A stretch of 64,000 nucleotides of DNA from a bacterium (GTDB lineage Bacteria > Patescibacteriota > CPR2 > UBA1875 > JAJYID01). Position numbers and translations under genes: made by a program. Location: contig JAJYLR010000001.1 of NCBI GenBank assembly GCA_021787535.1, positions 19,648 to 83,647 on the forward strand. Direction: 5' to 3'. Under the pieces are notes generated by a model. The model had not been told where the DNA came from, did not search any database, and was given only the letters and a program-made list of their open reading frames with translations. Positions 7,138 to 64,000 of the stretch are shown here, piece after piece. Numbering within the stretch: position 1 is the stretch's first letter; each line of letters opens with the position of its first letter.

Positions 7138-7764
7138 ATGACACAAAAAGAAATTGTTCCGCATGATAGCAGATACATTGTTCTAACTCAGCAAAGTTTT
7201 TGTTGTCTTCCAACCTGTATCCAAATGGTTATGATTAGGCATAATATTCCGTTGGTTCAATCAGAAGAATTAGCTTATCACTTTGGTCTTTCTGTCACAA
7301 AAGAATTCAAACATTTATTTTGGAATCCAAGGTTGGTAGATAAACTACCGAAACAATACAGTGAACCAACAACCAGAATAAGTAAGCCGGAGTATGAACC
7401 AAACAAAGTTTTTAAGCAAATGGGTATTCCTCTAAGGTTTAGTCAAACTCTTATTAATCAGTTTAAAAAATTTAACGATTTTGAGGAATACCTAAAAGAA
7501 GCCATCAAAGAGGGACGAGATACTTTAATCTGCTTTGATTGGGAAATTGCAAATCCTGACTACTTTGATAATTACATTGGTGGTTATGGTCATGTTGCTC
7601 TTCTTGATAAACTGATTAATGATAAAGAAATCCGTTACATTGATCCTGAACATGGTTATTCGAAATGGCCAATTATAAAGATAGAAACCCTTTATGAAGC
7701 AATGAAAAGTCATGGTTCAGATAGGGGTGCCGGTTTTTGGGAATTAGAATACATTAAGGAGTAA
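7138..7764 (+). CDS. Papain-fold cysteine peptidase/acyltransferase-like protein (peptidase C39_2 / BtrH-like)
   Basis: Putative catalytic triad: Gln/Cys in QQSFCCLPTCIQMVM, His in GGYGHVALLD, Asp in IDPEHG. The order and spacing fit the C39-like fold. Confidence 0.45.
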   Translation: MTQKEIVPHDSRYIVLTQQSFCCLPTCIQMVMIRHNIPLVQSEELAYHFGLSVTKEFKHLFWNPRLVDKLPKQYSEPTTRISKPEYEPNKVFKQMGIPLRFSQTLINQFKKFNDFEEYLKEAIKEGRDTLICFDWEIANPDYFDNYIGGYGHVALLDKLINDKEIRYIDPEHGYSKWPIIKIETLYEAMKSHGSDRGAGFWELEYIKE

Positions 7765-7766
7765 TT

Positions 7767-8225
7767 ATGGAAATACGAAAAGCAAAAATTGAAGATCTGA
7801 AAGAACTGCGGGAACTATACCATCAGTTCCTGATAGAGGACAATGATGGTACGTTTGATGCAGAGTGGGCATTTACAGAAAGAAGTACAGCGCTTTTGCG
7901 AGAACCTATAGAAAAAGAGAATGGGTTTGTTTATCTTTTTGAAGACAAGGGGAACTTAGCTGGATTTATAATTGGCTGGATGCTTGAGGCAAAAGAAAGC
8001 AGAAAAGAGGTGCTGCCGGCTAGGATTGATGAAATTTATATTGCGAAAGACTACCGAGGTCAGGGTGTTGGGAAAAAGTTGGCTAAGGAATTTGAAAAAT
8101 GGGCGAAAATCAAAGGTGCAAATAAGGTTAAGGTCGGTTCCTACTATGACAATAAGGCGGCCAGAAGATTGTATGAGAGTCTTGGATATAAAGAATGGGT
8201 TGTTGAATACGAAAAAGACTTATGA
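7767..8225 (+). CDS. GNAT family N-acetyltransferase
   Basis: Motif A IYIAKDYRGQGVGKKLAKEFEKWAK. Motif B region NKAARRLYESLGY. Confidence 0.85.
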   Translation: MEIRKAKIEDLKELRELYHQFLIEDNDGTFDAEWAFTERSTALLREPIEKENGFVYLFEDKGNLAGFIIGWMLEAKESRKEVLPARIDEIYIAKDYRGQGVGKKLAKEFEKWAKIKGANKVKVGSYYDNKAARRLYESLGYKEWVVEYEKDL

Positions 8226-52773: not shown

Positions 52774-54045
52774 ATGTTTAGGAGGGTTGGGGCAGTTCTA
52801 TTTTTATTTTGGGTGTTTTTGATACCCGTGTTTGTGAATGCTCAAAGCGATCCGGCTATCAAAACGGCGGCTGTGACGGATTGCAGCGGTGTGGTGATTT
52901 CCGAATTCATTCCAAATCCGATAGGGACAGATTCTGATGGTGAATGGATCGAGCTTTATAATCAAACCGGCAGCGAGATAAATCTCAACGGTTATTCCGT
53001 TGCCGACACCGAAGGTACCACGCATAAATATTCGATTTCAAATGCGACAATTACCGCCGGTGGTTTTGCTATCTTTGACCGAGAAACTACTGGTATCACA
53101 TTGAATAATGACAAAGAAAGCCTGATTTTAACTAAACCGGACGGCACCAGCTGCCAGACTGATTTTGCCTCTGATACCGTTAATCCGAAAGAAGGCAATA
53201 GTTTCGCTTATGATTTTAGCGCGAAGGGCTGGAAATGGACCACCACGCCGACGCCGGGAAGTGACAACATATTTACAGTCGACAATACGGCCTCAAATCC
53301 GACGAATAGTGGTGATGGTTCTGCTGCTCCGCCACCGCAAAACAGTTGTGCCGGGATAATGATCACCGAGCTGATGCCGGCGCCTGCGGGATCTGACAGC
53401 GAAAACGAATGGATTGAAATTTACAACTCAAACGGCGACGCGACGGACATTGGGGGATGCGTTCTGACTGACAAGCTGAAGGCCGGCAGTACGACAAAAT
53501 ACACTTTTCCGGCCGGCACAAGCATCAATTCAGGAGAATACAAGGTGCTGACGCGGCCGGTCACCAAGATTTCCTTAAATAATGATAGCGACGGGGTGAT
53601 GCTGCTTGCCTCTGACGGCACAGTCGTGTTTGACACAGGGCTCTACAAGGATGCCAAGGAGAACATTGCTTATGCGTATAGCGACGACCAATGGTTTTGG
53701 ACTTCGACCCCGACCCCGGGCGCGCCAAATGTTATCACGACACCTCCACCAAAAGCCGCAAAGAAGCCCAAAAGCACAAAGGCAGCATCTTCGAAAACCG
53801 CCAAATCCGCTAGAAAATCAGGAAGCGGAGGCGGACAGGTTTTGGGCGATAGTACTAACGCCGGCAACAACAAGAAGAAAATAAGCGACAAAGCTTTGGG
53901 CTATATCTTGGTCATTCTCGCTTGCCTGGCGCCATTTGGCTACCTGGCTTATTTAAAGAAGGATTGGATACTAGAGCAACCGATTTCGCAAAGAATCTTG
54001 AAAAAATTAGAGAAAATGCGAAAAACATTGACTTCATTCATATAA
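52774..54045 (+). CDS. Secreted protein with two lamin-tail domains (LTD) and a C-terminal TM anchor
   Basis: Two copies of VVISEFIPNPIGTDSDGEWIELYN...GYSV and IMITELMPAPAGSDSENEWIEIYN...GGCVL, which are LTD signatures. Signal peptide. Confidence 0.75.
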   Translation: MFRRVGAVLFLFWVFLIPVFVNAQSDPAIKTAAVTDCSGVVISEFIPNPIGTDSDGEWIELYNQTGSEINLNGYSVADTEGTTHKYSISNATITAGGFAIFDRETTGITLNNDKESLILTKPDGTSCQTDFASDTVNPKEGNSFAYDFSAKGWKWTTTPTPGSDNIFTVDNTASNPTNSGDGSAAPPPQNSCAGIMITELMPAPAGSDSENEWIEIYNSNGDATDIGGCVLTDKLKAGSTTKYTFPAGTSINSGEYKVLTRPVTKISLNNDSDGVMLLASDGTVVFDTGLYKDAKENIAYAYSDDQWFWTSTPTPGAPNVITTPPPKAAKKPKSTKAASSKTAKSARKSGSGGGQVLGDSTNAGNNKKKISDKALGYILVILACLAPFGYLAYLKKDWILEQPISQRILKKLEKMRKTLTSFI

Positions 54046-58427: not shown

Positions 58428-59234
58428 ATGGCATCTAAATCGAAAAAACCAATCAAAATACTCTTCATTGCCGATATTGTCGGGCGTGCCGGGCGAAAAA
58501 CGATTAAAGAAGTGCTGCCTCAGCTTAAGAAGGAGGAAGGTATAGACTTTGTTGTGGCAAACGGTGAGAATATGACGACTGGCAATGGGATGACGAAAAG
58601 CACGATGGATGAGATGTTGGAGGCGGGGGTTGACTTCTTCACTGCTGGCAATCATATCTGGAAAAAGCCCGAGTTTTTAAACGAACTCGAAAAAAAAGAA
58701 ACACCTGTTGTGCGTCCGGCAAACTATCCGCCAACATCACCGGGTGATGGATATAGGATAGTTAAAACCGGTTTTGGCAGACTCTTGATCATAAGTCTCC
58801 TTGGCCGTGAGGGAATCAATGTACAAGTAGAGTCGCCTTTCAAGTCTATTGATGATATTTTAGAGGCCACAGAAGGCAAATATGATATTTCATTAGTCGA
58901 TTTTCATGCCGAAGTTACCAGTGAAAAGGTGGCCATGGGATATTACCTTGATGGCAGAGTGGATATTGTGGTTGGTACTCACACTCATGTTCCAACTGCA
59001 GACGCTCGCGTTCTGCCGAAGGACACAGCTTATATTTCAGATGCCGGAATGACCGGTGTAGAGGAGTCAGTTCTAGGTGTAAAAACCGACATAATTATCC
59101 GGCTTTTTACAACTGGGATACCTCAGAAGTTCGAGCAGGCAACAGAAGGGCAGAGGGTTTTCAATTCAGTTATGGTTGACTTTAGTCCCAAAGGAAAAGT
59201 AAAATCCATTATTAGACTTGATAGGCACATTTGA
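58428..59234 (+). CDS. ymdB: YmdB-family metallophosphoesterase (2',3'-cyclic nucleotide phosphodiesterase), in the conserved position downstream of rny
   Basis: IKILFIADIVGRAGR, GENMTTGNG, GNHIWKK, DFHAEVTSEK, GTHTHVPTAD motifs. Confidence 0.85.
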   Translation: MASKSKKPIKILFIADIVGRAGRKTIKEVLPQLKKEEGIDFVVANGENMTTGNGMTKSTMDEMLEAGVDFFTAGNHIWKKPEFLNELEKKETPVVRPANYPPTSPGDGYRIVKTGFGRLLIISLLGREGINVQVESPFKSIDDILEATEGKYDISLVDFHAEVTSEKVAMGYYLDGRVDIVVGTHTHVPTADARVLPKDTAYISDAGMTGVEESVLGVKTDIIIRLFTTGIPQKFEQATEGQRVFNSVMVDFSPKGKVKSIIRLDRHI

Positions 59235-59344
59235 AAGCTGTTGCAAGTGCGAAGAATCTGTGCTATAAATCGTATTACTTTTTAATTTATTAAAATAATT
59301 TAATTTTCCGCATGCAAAACCCGCGGATAACAAGAGGAGAAAAA

Positions 59345-59617
59345 ATGACAAAACATGATCTAGTGGAATCACTCTCAAAAGAAACAGGATATTCTAAAAA
59401 GGAAGTCGAAGCTTTTCTAAAAGTTTTAACTGCAACCATTACGGGCAAAGTGAGAAACGGCGAAAAAGTGGCAATTACAGGTTTTGGCACCTTTGACTTG
59501 GGTAAGCGCGCTTCAAGAAGAGGGCGAAATCCTCAGACCGGCGATTACATTACTATTCCTGAAATGAAAATGCCGAGATTTAGAGCTGGGAAGAACCTCA
59601 AAGAATCGGTTAGATAA
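59345..59617 (+). CDS. hup: HU family DNA-binding protein (start at MTKHDL after an AGGAG RBS)
   Basis: GFGTFDLGKRASRRGRNPQTGDYITIPEMKMPRFRAGK is the HU arm signature. Confidence 0.9.
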   Translation: MTKHDLVESLSKETGYSKKEVEAFLKVLTATITGKVRNGEKVAITGFGTFDLGKRASRRGRNPQTGDYITIPEMKMPRFRAGKNLKESVR

Positions 59618-59811
59618 ATATTTTCATATATAAAAGATGCTTCTTGCGAGTGTCTTTTATATTGGGGAAAAGGCAGTTTTGGGGTATAATATCTAGGCAA
59701 ATGATCAATAACTAATTTCCAATGCCTAATAAATGATTAAAACATTTAATTTTTAAATTTAGAAATTGGGATTTGACTGGTTATTAGTTATTGTAAATTG
59801 GAAATTTTCCG

Positions 59812-59888
59812 CGGGGTGTGGCGCAGTTGGCTAGCGCGCCTGCTTTGGGAGCAGGAGGCCGGAGGTTCGAGTCCTCTCACCCCGACCA
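59812..59888 (+). tRNA. tRNA-Pro (anticodon UGG)
   Basis: Folded by hand. C1:G72 acceptor cggggtg/caccccg, D-arm gcgc/gcgc, anticodon stem cctgc/gcagg with loop tttggga, T-arm ggagg-ttcgagt-cctct, discriminator A73, encoded CCA. Confidence 0.8.
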
Positions 59889-61409
59889 GATGAGACATTT
59901 TGAAAATTCAGGGGCGTTTTGTTGTACGCTCGCCCAACCTTCAGTAGTATTCGTTTCGCAAAAAGCCCTATATTTCGGAATTAAATCAAAGGGGCGGACA
60001 AATTCAAATTCAGCTTTTTGGGCAAGCAAACGGCGGTTCGTTCCAATTTTTTCCACCAATGACTTTATTTCATAAAAATCATCGGACAAAGCAAGTTTTT
60101 CGGCGCGGTGAGCGGTTTTTATCCATTCCCGCAAAGGTTCGATCCAACTGTTTCCCTTTCGCCCAAAATCAGACTCTCTTTTGCTAAGGTCTGTTTTTAT
60201 TTTTATAAGTTCATCTTTTTTTAAAAGATAAGTTTCTTTTTCAATACTTCCGTCTAAAAAAGCATTGACCAGTTTATCAAGTTTCGTTTCCGTCTCCTTG
60301 ATTTTCTTCTTGAAGCTTTGGGCGAAAGATTGCGCCGACCGGGCGTTGTCTTTTTCCCACACGTCAACTTGAGCGTTCATTTTTTCGGCCCAGCCGCCGC
60401 AAATAGCGATATTTTGAAGCCGTGATTTCAATTGATCAGCGAGTAAGTCCTCGCGTACATATCCTTGGCTGCATTTGCCGCGCTTTTTGGTACAGCGGTA
60501 ATAACGGTAAGTGCCGCCGTGTCCATGGGCAAACTGGGCGGTAATAGCGCCGCCGCACTCGCTGCAAGTTAAAAGCCCGACAAACGGGAAGTTATGCTTC
60601 CTTTTGCTTTTTCGAGGTCTTGCTCGCTGTTTTAGAACTTTTTGGACGGCTTCAAAAACGCTTAAGGAAACAATTGCCGGAAAACCGCCTTCATAGGTTT
60701 CACCATTGTGTACAATCAAACCGAGATAAACTTTGTTGGTGAGCATTCTCTGTAGCTTTGCCTTGCAAAATGGTTTTCCGGTTCTTCCAACCACGCCCCA
60801 AAAACTCAGGCGCCGGCCCAAACTTTCCAAAGTGTGTTGGCCATGGGCAAATTCCTCAAACGTTTTAACTACAAGTCTTGATTTTACAGGATCGGGTTCA
60901 ATATTTCTCGTTTTCGGATTATTCACATAGCCGAAAGGCGCAAGTGTCGGCCATTCGCCGCGCCTGATTTTTTGTCTGATCCCGCGCTTTACGTTCTCCG
61001 ACAAATTGTCGGAATAATACTTTGATTGGCCAAAGGCGACTTGAAGCATAAAGAGCCCTTGCGGAGTCGGCTCAAACCAAAAAGTGGGAAAGTTTAAAGA
61101 AACGATCTTGCCGATGTCAATACAATAAATTATTTGTCCGCCATCAACGGAATTTCTGGCCAAACGATCAGGGTGCCAAGCAATCAAGCCGATCGGTTCT
61201 TTGCTCTCGTGGACTTTGCCCATCATTTCATTAAAAACCTTCCGGCCCGGTTTCTTGGCGCTTTTAGATTCAATAAAGGTTTCCGCAATCTCTATATTTT
61301 CCCGTTTGGCAAATTCCGCCAACTCCGTAAGCTGCGCTTCAATAGACATCACTTGTCTTTCTTCATCTTCGGTGGATTTACGGGCGTAGAGAAAAAATCT
61401 TGTTTTCAT
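59877..61409 (-). CDS. Large serine recombinase (resolvase/invertase catalytic domain, recombinase domain, zinc-ribbon/coiled-coil), integrase-type
   Basis: N-terminus YARKSTEDEERQVMSIEAQ (catalytic Ser region). DRLARN. Recombinase domain. C-terminal Cys cluster CSECGG...C..C. Confidence 0.85.
   Translation of the reverse strand: MKTRFFLYARKSTEDEERQVMSIEAQLTELAEFAKRENIEIAETFIESKSAKKPGRKVFNEMMGKVHESKEPIGLIAWHPDRLARNSVDGGQIIYCIDIGKIVSLNFPTFWFEPTPQGLFMLQVAFGQSKYYSDNLSENVKRGIRQKIRRGEWPTLAPFGYVNNPKTRNIEPDPVKSRLVVKTFEEFAHGQHTLESLGRRLSFWGVVGRTGKPFCKAKLQRMLTNKVYLGLIVHNGETYEGGFPAIVSLSVFEAVQKVLKQRARPRKSKRKHNFPFVGLLTCSECGGAITAQFAHGHGGTYRYYRCTKKRGKCSQGYVREDLLADQLKSRLQNIAICGGWAEKMNAQVDVWEKDNARSAQSFAQSFKKKIKETETKLDKLVNAFLDGSIEKETYLLKKDELIKIKTDLSKRESDFGRKGNSWIEPLREWIKTAHRAEKLALSDDFYEIKSLVEKIGTNRRLLAQKAEFEFVRPFDLIPKYRAFCETNTTEGWASVQQNAPEFSKCLIWSG
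59884..60040. repeat. Left 157-bp inverted repeat (IR-L). It starts at the last 5 nt of tRNA-Pro and covers the 3' end (C-terminal ~50 codons) of the serine recombinase gene.
   Basis: Reverse complement matches 61544-61700 (first ~90 nt identical, ~92% overall). Confidence 0.85.
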
Positions 61410-61543
61410 AATGTTTCCTCCTTAATTTATATGTCTCCTTTGGCCTAAAAGCGTGGGATTAAAACTTGCTTTGTATTTTTGCTTTTGGCAAAAACGGAAA
61501 AAATCGGATACAAATTTCATTTGTGAATTTGCTTCGCAACTTT

Positions 61544-61700
61544 CGAACCGCCGTTTGCTTTCCCGAAAAGCCGAGTTTGAATTTGTCCGCCCCTTTGATT
61601 TAATTCCTAAATACAGGGTTTTTTGCGAAACGAATACTACTGAAGGTTGGGCGAGCGTACAACAAAACGCCCCTGAATTTTCAAAATGTCTCATCTGGTC
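61544..61700. repeat. Right 157-bp inverted repeat (IR-R), an inverted copy of the recombinase 3' end. It ends with gtctcatctggtc, which mirrors the tRNA-Pro junction.
   Basis: Seen directly. ORFs 59818-60075 and 61422-61694 translate to the same peptide on opposite strands. Confidence 0.85.
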
Positions 61701-61756
61701 GCAATTGCTGAACGTTGCTCGAACCCATTTCGAACAGGGAGAGGAATACTAGGGGC

Positions 61757-61782
61757 GATTTTTACAAGGATTTGTAAAAATC
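61757..61782. promoter_or_regulatory. Perfect palindrome gatttttacaa-ggat-ttgtaaaaatc, 57 nt beyond IR-R. Candidate recombinase binding or crossover site.
   Basis: 11-bp perfect arms around a 4-nt centre. Confidence 0.35.
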
Positions 61783-62055
61783 TGTGGCGGAAATTCGGGT
61801 CGGGGCGAATTTCCGCGGGGCTTTCGGACTTTCTTAAATCTCGGACCGCCTCAAGCATGAACTTTCGCCTGTTTCCCCAGCTTAACTGGTTCGGGTTTTT
61901 GCGGCGAAGATCGGGCGGCAAGGAAAGAAAGGGAACTTTTTCGCTTGCCCCGCCCAGCCCGGCGCGCTCCAGGGTTAAAGGGGCTCCCTTGTTTTTCTTC
62001 TAAGATAACTATAGTATGTAGAACTAAAGTTAGCAAGTAGTTTATTATATCCAGT

Positions 62056-62265
62056 ATGAAATCAAATGTTTTAATCAAATTCGGTAACAGGGTTCGGGAG
62101 GAAAGGGCCAAACAAGGATTATCTCAAGAAGCTTTGGCTGATAAGGCAGAAGTGCATAGAACTTACATTGGGATGATTGAAAGAGCTGAAAAGAATGTGA
62201 CTTTGATAACTATTGAGAGGTTAGCTAAAGCGCTTGGTGTTAAACCTGAAGATTTGGTTAGGTGA
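62056..62265 (+). CDS. XRE-family helix-turn-helix transcriptional regulator (Cro/CI-like)
   Basis: LSQEALADKAEVHRTYIGMIERAEKNVTLITIERLAKALGV is a canonical HTH_XRE sequence. Confidence 0.85.
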   Translation: MKSNVLIKFGNRVREERAKQGLSQEALADKAEVHRTYIGMIERAEKNVTLITIERLAKALGVKPEDLVR

Positions 62266-62278
62266 GGTTGAAAAAGAT

Positions 62279-62779
62279 ATGATATTTTCTGATATTAAAA
62301 TTGAAATCTCTGCTAATACTGTAGCTTGGTATGGAGCAATAGTCTCCTCTCTAGCATTTTTTATAGCTTTTCTAACATATAAGAGAGACCGAGCAAAAAT
62401 TGTGGTGGAATGGCAAAAAGATATGTTTTTTTATGATGATAGCATAAATCCTGGTGAACCATATCTTTTAATCAAAGTTATTAATAAAGGACGCCGTTCG
62501 GTTAGAATACAACAAGTGGGATTTTCTAATTTGTACAAAAGGGGAGGAGGAATTCTTAACCCTTATTATATTTCCCTGCCTAGTACAGTTAGTGAAGGTG
62601 AGAGTTTATCTCTTACGTGGAAACAGAAAAATATTTTTAATAAACCAATCTCATCATTTAATGTTTACGACGCAACAGGGAAAGTTTATAAGGCGAGAGT
62701 TGTCTCTCTTCCGGAATATTTGTTCGACAAAATTGTAAAATTTTTCCTAAAGTTAAAAAATCATAAAAAGAAGTCCTGA
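62279..62779 (+). CDS. Hypothetical membrane-anchored protein (start at MIFSDIKIEI after the HTH gene stop)
   Basis: One TM then a beta-rich domain. No family. Confidence 0.4.
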   Translation: MIFSDIKIEISANTVAWYGAIVSSLAFFIAFLTYKRDRAKIVVEWQKDMFFYDDSINPGEPYLLIKVINKGRRSVRIQQVGFSNLYKRGGGILNPYYISLPSTVSEGESLSLTWKQKNIFNKPISSFNVYDATGKVYKARVVSLPEYLFDKIVKFFLKLKNHKKKS

Positions 62780-62794
62780 AAATCACAACTACCA

Positions 62795-63454
62795 TTAATC
62801 CTCATTCTTTATTAAGACCTCTCTGCCAAATCGTTGGTTGTCCGTTGAAAACATATAAATTCGCAAAGGTTTCATATCCTCAAACACCACAGCTTTTTTG
62901 TATCCACAAGTATCTCGAAGACTGGAGGGTGTTATATACCACCAAGCAATTGCAGCACTATTTATTGCGGTAAATTCAACTCTACCTTTCCAGATATTCC
63001 CATCTTTCTCGACAAGTTTAATCGTAAATTCATTGCCGCCACAGTATTTCAAAGTTGCCTCACCGTTACAATCATCGCTAAGGAGGTTGTAGTCCTTATC
63101 ATGTTGATTTGCTAAATTTTCAAATTCATTCTTATCTTCTTCTGAAAATTTCTTGAAATTATAATTCTCCCAAGCATCCATCTCACCGGGTTCAGTTTTT
63201 TCAGACGGTTTGTCCCAATGATATGAATATGCTTTGTAAGTCCCTTCAATTTTTTTAAATCTTGAGAAATTTTTGTATATCTCAATAATTCTCTCCAGGA
63301 TTATAAGCGCAATTGCTACAAATGCGCTTATTTTTATAGTTTTTAGATCATTACTATCTTTTTTGGCAAAAAACCACCATGCGAGATCAGAAACGAAAAA
63401 GATAGTAAATACTTTGATTATCCAACTACCCCATATCAGTTTTATTAGTTTCAT
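62795..63454 (-). CDS. Hypothetical membrane protein (two N-terminal TM helices plus a soluble domain)
   Basis: ORF only. Confidence 0.4.
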   Translation of the reverse strand: MKLIKLIWGSWIIKVFTIFFVSDLAWWFFAKKDSNDLKTIKISAFVAIALIILERIIEIYKNFSRFKKIEGTYKAYSYHWDKPSEKTEPGEMDAWENYNFKKFSEEDKNEFENLANQHDKDYNLLSDDCNGEATLKYCGGNEFTIKLVEKDGNIWKGRVEFTAINSAAIAWWYITPSSLRDTCGYKKAVVFEDMKPLRIYMFSTDNQRFGREVLIKNED

Positions 63455-63548
63455 TCAATTTCCTTTATAATTCTGTCTGTTTCGACAAGCACTTTAGTGA
63501 CTTTTTGATAATGCTCGAAAACTTCAGAAATTTAAATCTATCTTTTCT

Positions 63549-64000
63549 TTAACTTTTCCCAAGGTTTTTGTAGGTTGAGATAAGTTCTTTAAAATTCTGG
63601 ACCTTATATTTTCCCCAGCCTTCTTGTTTTACATAAAGCATTTCATAATTATATTTCTTTTGTCTCTCTGTAGCGTCCTTGCACCATTGTCCAAGTCTCT
63701 CAATTTTTTTCAAATCGTCTAAATCTTCTCGTCCCTTAGTCTCAATGATATAAATTGTTTTATCATCTTTCTTGACTAAGAAATCCGGGTAATAGTAAGA
63801 AATTCCGCCTTCAGCGTTTTTATAATCAATTTTAAACTGAAAATTTCCGCTAACATTCCCATAGTTTTTTGCAAATGAAATGATATCATCACATTTCTCT
63901 AGAAAACTAGCAAATTTTAGTTCAAAATCGCTGTCGCCGACAATTTTATTAAATATGCTCTTGGTAGGCACAAGGAAGCTCTTGTTGTTTACTACGAATG
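63549..64000 (-). CDS. PD-(D/E)XK nuclease-fold domain protein. The ORF is open to the window edge (N-terminus beyond 64000) and may be the C-terminal domain of a larger restriction/helicase-type protein.
   Basis: YYYPDFLVKKDDKTIYIIETKGRE contains the D...E-T-K nuclease motif. No stop upstream in frame before the window end. Confidence 0.45.
   Translation of the reverse strand, partial: FVVNNKSFLVPTKSIFNKIVGDSDFELKFASFLEKCDDIISFAKNYGNVSGNFQFKIDYKNAEGGISYYYPDFLVKKDDKTIYIIETKGREDLDDLKKIERLGQWCKDATERQKKYNYEMLYVKQEGWGKYKVQNFKELISTYKNLGKS

Follow-up and report, generated by a model that had tools for sequence, protein, structure and literature searches.

The segment described here, positions 62056-64000, closes a 64,000-nt stretch of DNA (the window) from a bacterium of the Patescibacteriota (GenBank assembly GCA_021787535.1, contig JAJYLR010000001.1) and follows a tRNA-Pro gene and a gene for a large serine recombinase (LSR). 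A preliminary description of the window had noted four open reading frames (ORFs) in this segment, all of which we confirmed in strand and coordinates. Homologues were found elsewhere for each of them, indicating that they are genes rather than chance ORFs. The four genes are as follows:

62056-62265, plus strand: gene for a 69-aa (amino acid) XRE-family helix-turn-helix (HTH) protein of predicted controller (C) type (HTH_3, E 1e-16).
62279-62779, plus strand: mem166, 166 aa, predicted membrane-anchored immunoglobulin (Ig)-like beta-sandwich protein.
62795-63454, minus strand: mem219b, 219 aa, with two predicted transmembrane (TM) helices; final gene of a mod-orf219a-res operon.
63549-64000, minus strand: C-terminal part of Res, residues 752-900 (149 residues) of a 900-aa protein.

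Across 62056-64000 the G+C content is 0.336, as compared with 0.417 in the window upstream of the tRNA gene. We consider it likely that this segment is the recombinase-proximal cargo end of an LSR element of about 16.7 kb, inserted at the 3' end of tRNA-Pro and carrying a Type III restriction-modification (R-M) system.

The sequence could be followed past the window in two steps. An exact-protein look-up of the window's 219-aa ORF retrieved a 107-kb public contig that matches the window without a difference for 11,206 nt, and a second extension was made via the gene for a coupling ATPase; the joined contigs gave an 84.4-kb sequence in window coordinates—with 'extended coordinates' denoting the window numbering carried ~20 kb past the window end. 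Beyond Res, the genes are, in order, orf219a, Mod (721 aa), DUF3768, a 177-aa ORF (orf177), a Replic_Relax protein, the 945-aa coupling ATPase, a 75-aa ORF (orf75), an SDH/ClpP-like protease and a 172-aa membrane protein (orf172). Core genome restarts 12.6 kb beyond the window end, with genes for PNPOx, RNase H, polysaccharide deacetylase, GAPDH and PGK. The G+C content of the element is 0.39, against 0.42 for the host.

The recombinase end of the element is marked by the following features:

59812-59888, plus strand: tRNA-Pro(UGG) (ARAGORN; Rfam, 68 bits), its 3' part being the putative attB-type left half-site of attL.
59883-59888, plus strand: core CGACCA, the likely crossover and left boundary, where the tRNA-Pro-flanked and X-flanked copies become identical.
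59877-61409, minus strand: LSR gene, 510 aa, with its stop codon inside the tRNA-Pro gene.
59883-60040, plus strand: arm 1 of a 158-nt inverted repeat (core plus recombinase 3' end, termed R), 96% complementary to arm 2.
61544-61701, minus strand: arm 2 of the same repeat (copy of the recombinase 3' end plus core), located 5' of the recombinase gene.
61702-61929, minus strand: X, GC-rich (0.50) and non-coding, within a 281-nt inverted repeat at 61649-61929.
61702-61735, minus strand: P arm of X, GTTCRAAA..GGTTCGAGCNNCGTTCAGYAATTG, a putative attP-type half-site (alignment A1).
61757-61782 and 61787-61816, no strand assigned: two stable hairpins in X.

The recombinase contains the Resolvase (PF00239), Recombinase (PF07508) and Zn_ribbon_recom (PF13408) domains and matches the integrase family phrog_95 (E 2e-77). 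Arm 2 of the 158-nt repeat copies the gene's own last ~50 codons together with the tRNA-derived core. The partner of the 281-nt repeat was found 14.5 kb away, at the far element end (extended 76387-76666; L003, ~7757-8036); the two copies share 90.7% identity with a 120-nt perfect core and bracket 14.5 kb of cargo. The repeats therefore follow one another as tRNA-core-R (59812-60040), inverted X-core-R (61929-61544) and X-core (extended 76387-76619), and the element spans 59883 to ~76619, i.e., ~16.7 kb, with tRNA-core-R as its left and X-core as its right junction. These bounding att-like repeats, together with the resumption of core genome past 64 kb, bear out the earlier proposal that the four genes are cargo of an element integrated by the tRNA-Pro/recombinase unit.

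The half-sites themselves carry a further signature of serine integration. In tRNA-Pro the octamer GGTTCGAG, part of the T-arm, stops 11 nt short of CGACCA; in the X arm its distance from the core is 16 nt. In serine integrases, the distance from the centre to the motif bound by the zinc-ribbon domain (ZD) is 5 bp shorter in attB than it is in attP (PMC3783163); since the octamer is 5 nt nearer the core in the tRNA, tRNA-Pro would be the attB-type and the X arm the attP-type half-site—a geometry seen for the left half-sites only. The direct repeat that had been proposed earlier to mark the far boundary with a copy of the tRNA 3' end is absent; no more than the 6-nt CGACCA is common to the sites, in keeping with a recombinase of the serine and not the tyrosine type. 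The Logan contig ends at 61786 and 76529 were also considered as att sites and rejected: both fall exactly 30 nt inside the 120-nt repeat, which identifies them as an artefact of a k=31 graph. We also observed that the recombinase frame ends in ...CLIWSG* when joined to tRNA-Pro and would end in ...CLIWSQLLNVARTHFEQGEEY* when joined to X (59877-59888 versus 61696-61752), such that integration changes the C-terminal tail of the enzyme.

In several respects the element resembles known LSR elements, e.g., those of phiC31/A118-type, SCCmec Ccr, Tn5397 TndX and small integrative mobilizable elements, with which it shares the LSR domains, a short shared core, the 5-bp offset of the ZD motif, variable cargo and integration at a conserved gene. 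It differs from them in its target, the 3' end of a tRNA-Pro gene in which the recombinase frame stops; in the inverted attP-like copy that stands, intact and with 158 nt of the recombinase gene's 3' end included, on the 5' side of that gene; and in the inverted X repeats that enclose its cargo. Moreover, no recombination directionality factor was identified.

The R-M cargo is the operon mod-orf219a-res-mem219b on the minus strand. Within it, mod, orf219a (219 aa) and res are encoded on the same strand with stops and starts that overlap or abut, orf219a being placed between mod and res, while a 95-nt spacer separates res from mem219b. Mod matches N6_N4_Mtase (PF01555, E 2e-45) and the PADLOC model MTase_III (E 3e-113). 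Res displays a ResIII helicase domain, with GSGKT at 143 and NDEAH at 292, and a nuclease motif PD823...E837-T-K839 inside an RE_endonuc domain (D823 at 63783-63785; E837-x-K839 at 63735-63743); it matches PADLOC REase_III (E 9e-20) and NCBIfam BPTD_3080 (E 9e-82, under the equivalog cut-off), and the part of Res inside the window matches RE_endonuc and TnsA-like endonuclease domains. On this domain content, mod-orf219a-res is a predicted Type III R-M system. The nuclease ORF at the window edge had been described as a PD-(D/E)XK protein with its N-terminus beyond the window; the truncation is correct, the window holding residues 752-900 only, but instead of a stand-alone nuclease the ORF is the endonuclease domain of Res. 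The suspicion of defence cargo is likewise upheld by the presence of mod and res. Of the profile searches suggested at the time, those with the nuclease ORF led to Type III Res, and those with the two membrane proteins yielded no PADLOC match.

In Type III systems, an asymmetric site is hemi-methylated by Mod. Two unmodified sites in inverse orientation communicate by means of the Res ATPase within the Mod-Res complex, whereupon the PD-ExK domain cuts and incoming unmethylated DNA is destroyed. The Mod and Res of the element would act in this manner. As in EcoP15I-like Type III systems and the BPTD_3080 Res family, mod precedes res, Mod is a beta-class N6/N4 methyltransferase and Res combines a superfamily 2 (SF2) ATPase with a C-terminal PD-(D/E)XK domain. 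The differences are the 219-aa ORF between mod and res, the two-TM gene after res and the C protein nearby—extra genes that are missing from the loci with the nearest R-M homologues, L085 and L133.

The gene order beyond mod points to the mode of transfer. The coupling ATPase is of TrwB/TraG type (matches to TrwB, T4SS-DNA_transf and TraG-D_C), and the Replic_Relax protein (E 9e-10) is a candidate relaxase. No gene for a type IV secretion system (T4SS) mating channel was found within the element boundaries, and no capsid, tail, terminase, portal, holin or lysin gene was found among the element proteins in Pfam and PHROG scans across the 16.7 kb. The combination of coupling ATPase, Replic_Relax and DUF3768, with neither phage genes nor a mating channel, indicates that the element is probably integrative and mobilizable, and transferable at most by mobilisation in trans. 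The same trio recurs in locus L145 and, in L146 (JGI Ga0451520_0000100), stands inside a full conjugative element of the Candidate Phyla Radiation (CPR). This Gram-positive-type element has the trio, an LSR, R-M cargo and an SDH-type protease in common with ours; the pilin, PrgI, VirB4 and M23 peptidase genes are missing from the element of the window. As to its content, L146 comprises a T4SS pilin, PrgI, a VirB4-like ATPase, an M23 peptidase, an LSR and a Type I R-M system, and its SDH-type protease gene is situated between hsdS and hsdR. The remaining small proteins of our element, orf219a, orf177, orf172 and orf75, had no match in PADLOC, Pfam, NCBIfam or PHROGs.

At the near end of the cargo, the HTH protein had been taken for a Cro/CI-type repressor but is better matched by controller proteins of R-M systems. 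Over its full length it matches the PADLOC model Control_protein (E 1e-24), and its top matches in the PDB are C.AhdI (4e-14) and C.BclI (3e-12), with C.Esp1396I also found. The sequence reads ...KAEVHRTYIGMIER..., with a recognition helix of the HRTY class; recognition helices of PvuII-group C proteins fall into HRTY or DR(T/S)Y classes, with HRTY defining one PvuII-like subgroup (PMC2175313). C-boxes of this group adjoin the C gene on its 5' side and consist of two inverted-repeat pairs around a conserved 4-nt spacer that contains GT. The PvuII C-box itself has the form GACT-N3-AGTC-TGTA-GACT-N3-AGTC (PMC2175313). A comparable feature precedes the HTH gene:

62007-62031, plus strand: C-box-like putative operator AACTATAGTA-TGTAG-AACTAAAGTT, just 5' of the predicted HTH-gene promoter and overlapping it.

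The putative operator reads AACT-AT-AGTA TGTAG AACT-AA-AGTT, keeps the TGTA spacer, ends 24 nt ahead of the HTH ATG and occurs once in 84 kb. Aligned by eye with the symmetrised PvuII operator, it is identical in 21 of 27 columns. A leftward promoter-like site (62036-62008) overlaps it and faces X and the recombinase. In addition, a TATTAT hexamer can be read in the sequence 7 nt ahead of the HTH ATG, which suggests a leaderless or near-leaderless transcript. Taken by its sequence features, the HTH protein is a predicted R-M controller protein of PvuII/BclI type. It would bind the double C-box at 62007-62031, first activating and then repressing its own operon, including mem166, and upon arrival of the element in a new cell this circuit would hold expression back at first and then limit its level. 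The PvuII group of C proteins offers the closest parallel: an XRE HTH protein of ~70 aa with an HRTY helix, an adjoining R-M system, and two palindromic boxes with a TGTA-containing spacer just 5' of the protein's own start codon. The present case departs from C.PvuII and C.BclI in that the co-transcribed 3' gene encodes a small membrane protein and the system is Type III instead of Type II; the half-boxes of the predicted operator, furthermore, are 2 nt apart as against 3 in the PvuII group.

Several points weigh against this overall picture. The right junction is atypical in that a 47-nt R-like remnant and another CGACCA come after X-CGACCA—probably the scar of an earlier occupant—and neither an empty site nor a circular form was observed for this genome. 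The element has no mating channel of its own, and the assignment of Replic_Relax as a relaxase is weak. With regard to the controller, the spacing of the C-box half-sites is N2 where N3 would be expected; the gene 3' of C is mem166 and not an endonuclease gene, with the res operon convergent; and locus L007, a related element, pairs a C-like HTH protein with a peptidase. Finally, other XRE subfamilies, each with its own repeats, are found at this place in related elements irrespective of what these carry, from which it follows that the HTH protein may be a regulator of the element backbone and not of the R-M system.

That last point can be developed into an alternative, in which the HTH protein is an element master regulator (ImmR/CI-like) that controls, through the leftward promoter, both the recombinase and the cargo operon and is no dedicated R-M controller. 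An XRE gene is indeed found 300-480 nt from the P arm, in divergent orientation, in at least 15 related loci with varied cargo, and the promoter-like site directed towards X and the recombinase overlaps the putative operator. These XRE proteins belong, however, to different subfamilies and have different operators; 646 nt with two strong hairpins intervene between the putative operator and the recombinase start; and the HTH protein of the window bears both the C-protein signature and a C-box. We regard this alternative as rather unlikely, bearing in mind that the two roles are not mutually exclusive.

The two membrane proteins are the least familiar part of the cargo. mem166, co-transcribed with the C gene, has a single hydrophobic helix (residues 14-33), and its AlphaFold2 (AF2) model (pLDDT 88) consists of the TM helix, an eight-strand beta-sandwich and a C-terminal helix; in Foldseek, this model gave generic beta-sandwich matches only (TM-score of 0.51 or below). 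Neither a model nor a match was found for the protein in Pfam, PADLOC, NCBIfam or PHROGs. Its 16 detectable homologues, at 30-41% identity, share an invariant VAWYGAI within the TM helix and a DATGK motif. In at least 24 contigs a homologue of mem166 separates mod from res in a Type III system; homologues are also located directly 3' of a split HsdR-like gene and between the methyltransferase and specificity genes of Type I-like systems—one of these Type I-like contexts adjoining an LSR and an XRE gene at tRNA-Asn. Among the mem166-family loci on unrelated contigs (L136-L138, L142, L143 and L144), two are LSR elements at tRNA-Asn. By genomic association alone, mem166 is thus a putative R-M-associated accessory protein.

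mem219b has two hydrophobic helices (~3-30 and 39-60) and a C-terminal half rich in beta-strands. Its family amounts to 73 representative clusters in 1.84 billion, and one homologue lies in an ordinary ribosomal-protein neighbourhood. The protein had no match in Pfam, PADLOC, NCBIfam, PHROGs or the PDB, and a profile of 39 family members likewise had none in Pfam or the PDB; the AF2 model (pLDDT 52) was too poor for a structure search. A kinship between mem166 and mem219b was considered and rejected (hhalign probability 0.2%). One further feature adjoins the gene:

63490-63499, no strand assigned: single C-box-like palindrome CACTTTAGTG in the res-mem219b spacer, 37 nt 5' of the mem219b start.

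The palindrome has ACT-N2-AGT half-sites like those of the C-boxes at 62007-62031. Such sites occur ~6 times per 18 kb, giving a chance of ~0.03 for one in the 95-nt spacer, and we treat the possible link to the controller as a lead only. Functionally, mem166 and mem219b would most likely provide an R-M-linked membrane effector or an exclusion function. PrrC in the EcoprrI Type I locus is a precedent insofar as it, too, is a small non-R-M gene recurrently found inside R-M operons of differing types; it has no likeness to mem166 in sequence or fold, the latter being a predicted membrane-anchored Ig-like protein.

A second alternative bears on these proteins: C and mem166, possibly with mem219b, could form a self-contained abortive-infection or toxin-like module that is merely co-located with the R-M genes. 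C would then restrain a toxic membrane effector, much as the Type I enzyme guards PrrC. In C-controlled systems the gene 3' of C is the toxic one—precisely the place occupied by mem166—and relatives of mem166 sit inside R-M operons of differing types in the way of embedded effectors; the C-box-like site 5' of mem219b agrees with such a module as well. On the other hand, neither protein resembles a defence protein in PADLOC, the predicted fold of mem166 is generic and Ig-like with no pore or enzyme features, and one mem219b homologue stands in an ordinary setting of ribosomal-protein genes. We judge such a module to be doubtful, on a par with the master regulator.

Far less weight attaches to the view of the segment as a prophage remnant, with the HTH protein as a CI/Cro lysogeny repressor and the membrane proteins serving superinfection exclusion or lysis, which is close to the phage-like, lysogenic character first ascribed to these genes. 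It is true that the HTH protein matches the phage repressor family phrog_3 (E 4e-13), that the recombinase matches a phage integrase PHROG and that the insertion site is a tRNA gene. Yet the HTH protein scores far better against R-M control proteins (1e-24), 16.7 kb of element contain no genes for virion, packaging or lysis functions, the backbone is the conjugative-type trio that L146 places inside a full conjugative element, and the P-arm motif had 0 matches in 2.9 million viral contigs; a prophage origin is accordingly very improbable. Least credible of all, and hardly worth entertaining, is the notion that these are ordinary core genes of the lineage standing beside a recombinase by chance: apart from the modest gap in G+C content (0.39 versus 0.42), everything speaks against it—the inverted att-like repeats that bound the segment with core genes resuming after it, the rare and scattered homologues, and a recombinase module that is 82-87% identical across distant CPR lineages.

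Related elements could be recognised through the recombinase and the att-like sequences. Recombinases at 82-87% aa identity are encoded in Magasanikbacteria, Pacebacteria, Liptonbacteria and other metagenome-assembled genomes. In all nine loci that contain both genes, the end of the frame encoding the recombinase C-terminus overlaps the 3' end of tRNA-Pro by 5-8 nt, the anticodons of these tRNAs being UGG, CGG or GGG. The cargo varies from one relative to another. The genes of the window show no conserved core synteny and their flanks are core genome, which, by the test set in the preliminary description, favours an integrated element. L006 carries HTH-mod-res (Type III), NUDIX and radical S-adenosylmethionine (SAM) genes. 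L007 carries an HTH gene, a peptidoglycan-binding/M64 peptidase gene and one further gene, and at its far end displays a plain X-core-terminator junction (attR-like) adjoining SAM synthetase. L085 and L133 encode Mod (63-65% aa identity) and Res (72-73%) proteins close to those of the window, with the small membrane genes absent. The P-arm motif was found in at least 120 metagenome contigs.

Many copies of X are decayed, with X and tRNA-Pro convergent, no recombinase, and a short hairpin or a truncated R/R' palindrome between them. Ten such decayed loci (L022, L026, L065, L067, L069, L084, L087, L091, L096 and L111) resemble remnants of recombinase cassettes akin to miniature inverted-repeat transposable elements, and junctions in decayed loci occur at core-like sequences inside R, at positions ~39-53. 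Additionally, L132 has a recombinase with X arms on both sides, and in L125 X abuts the true 3' end of the recombinase gene; these junctions look like those expected of an excised or plasmid-like form of the element (attP-type).

The nested repeats show conservation of their own. The upstream inverted copy of the recombinase 3' end has the same length, 158 nt, in the window as in L006 and L011; in L007 it is longer, at 193 nt. Within a genome the arms are 96% (window) or 99-100% (L006, L007 and L011) identical, as opposed to ~84% between genomes, a pattern that indicates concerted evolution by gene conversion or selection for complementarity. An inversion of the recombinase segment resembling the 2-micron flip-flop was downgraded, given that the recombinase C-terminus faces tRNA-Pro in all ten loci concerned. 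The cargo of L085 is in opposite orientation to that of L133; inversion was not taken as proven by this, since a segment lying between identical repeats may be turned the wrong way in assembly. As for the hairpins of X, one is present at the matching position in 74% of 39 dereplicated X copies versus 1.8% of shuffles, with more than 10 distinct stem sequences, and the X copies are highly divergent outside the P arm. Their loops are found in both orientations, which argues against a sequence-specific RNA loop. The case for X as a global RNA was unconvincing, with folding z scores of -2.1 (sense) and -1.3 (antisense) and local hairpins only. Rfam searches (by E-value across 59000-64000 and by gathering threshold across the whole window) assigned X to no family and matched the tRNAs alone. 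If functional, the inverted repeats could silence read-through transcripts of the recombinase via a 5'/3' RNA duplex; they could also be a spare attP, or allow inversion or exchange of the cassette.

Elsewhere in the window, 52774-54045 is locally GC-rich (up to 0.53) and encodes a 423-aa secreted protein, annotated with lamin-tail (LTD) domains on the public contig. This gene appears ordinary and unrelated to the element.

The locus is a recognisable and fairly ordinary piece of defence-island cargo, not fundamentally new: an LSR integrative element, a Type III R-M system and a C protein are all of known kinds. Variant features that may deserve follow-up are the pairing of C with an R-M-associated membrane protein, the extra small membrane genes and the nested inverted att-like repeats. 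A literature search returned no description of this element family. We advance, as a tentative and on balance improbable proposal, that the element belongs to an undescribed and very widespread family of LSR elements at tRNA-Pro of CPR bacteria, characterised by nested inverted att-like repeats; the C-controlled membrane proteins of the mem166 family in its cargo would then be a component new to R-M systems, either accessory or effector. Since the mobile elements and the defence of CPR/Patescibacteria are poorly charted, the locus is of value as a fully delimited example, in which an LSR element at tRNA-Pro combines a Type III R-M system, a C protein and a transfer module. It ties two uncharacterised families of small membrane proteins to R-M, one of them recurring in both Type I and Type III operons, and it provides a conserved att-site motif by which such elements can be found and delimited. 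Provided that they are active, the LSR and its sites would amount to a defined attP/attB pair with a tRNA target.

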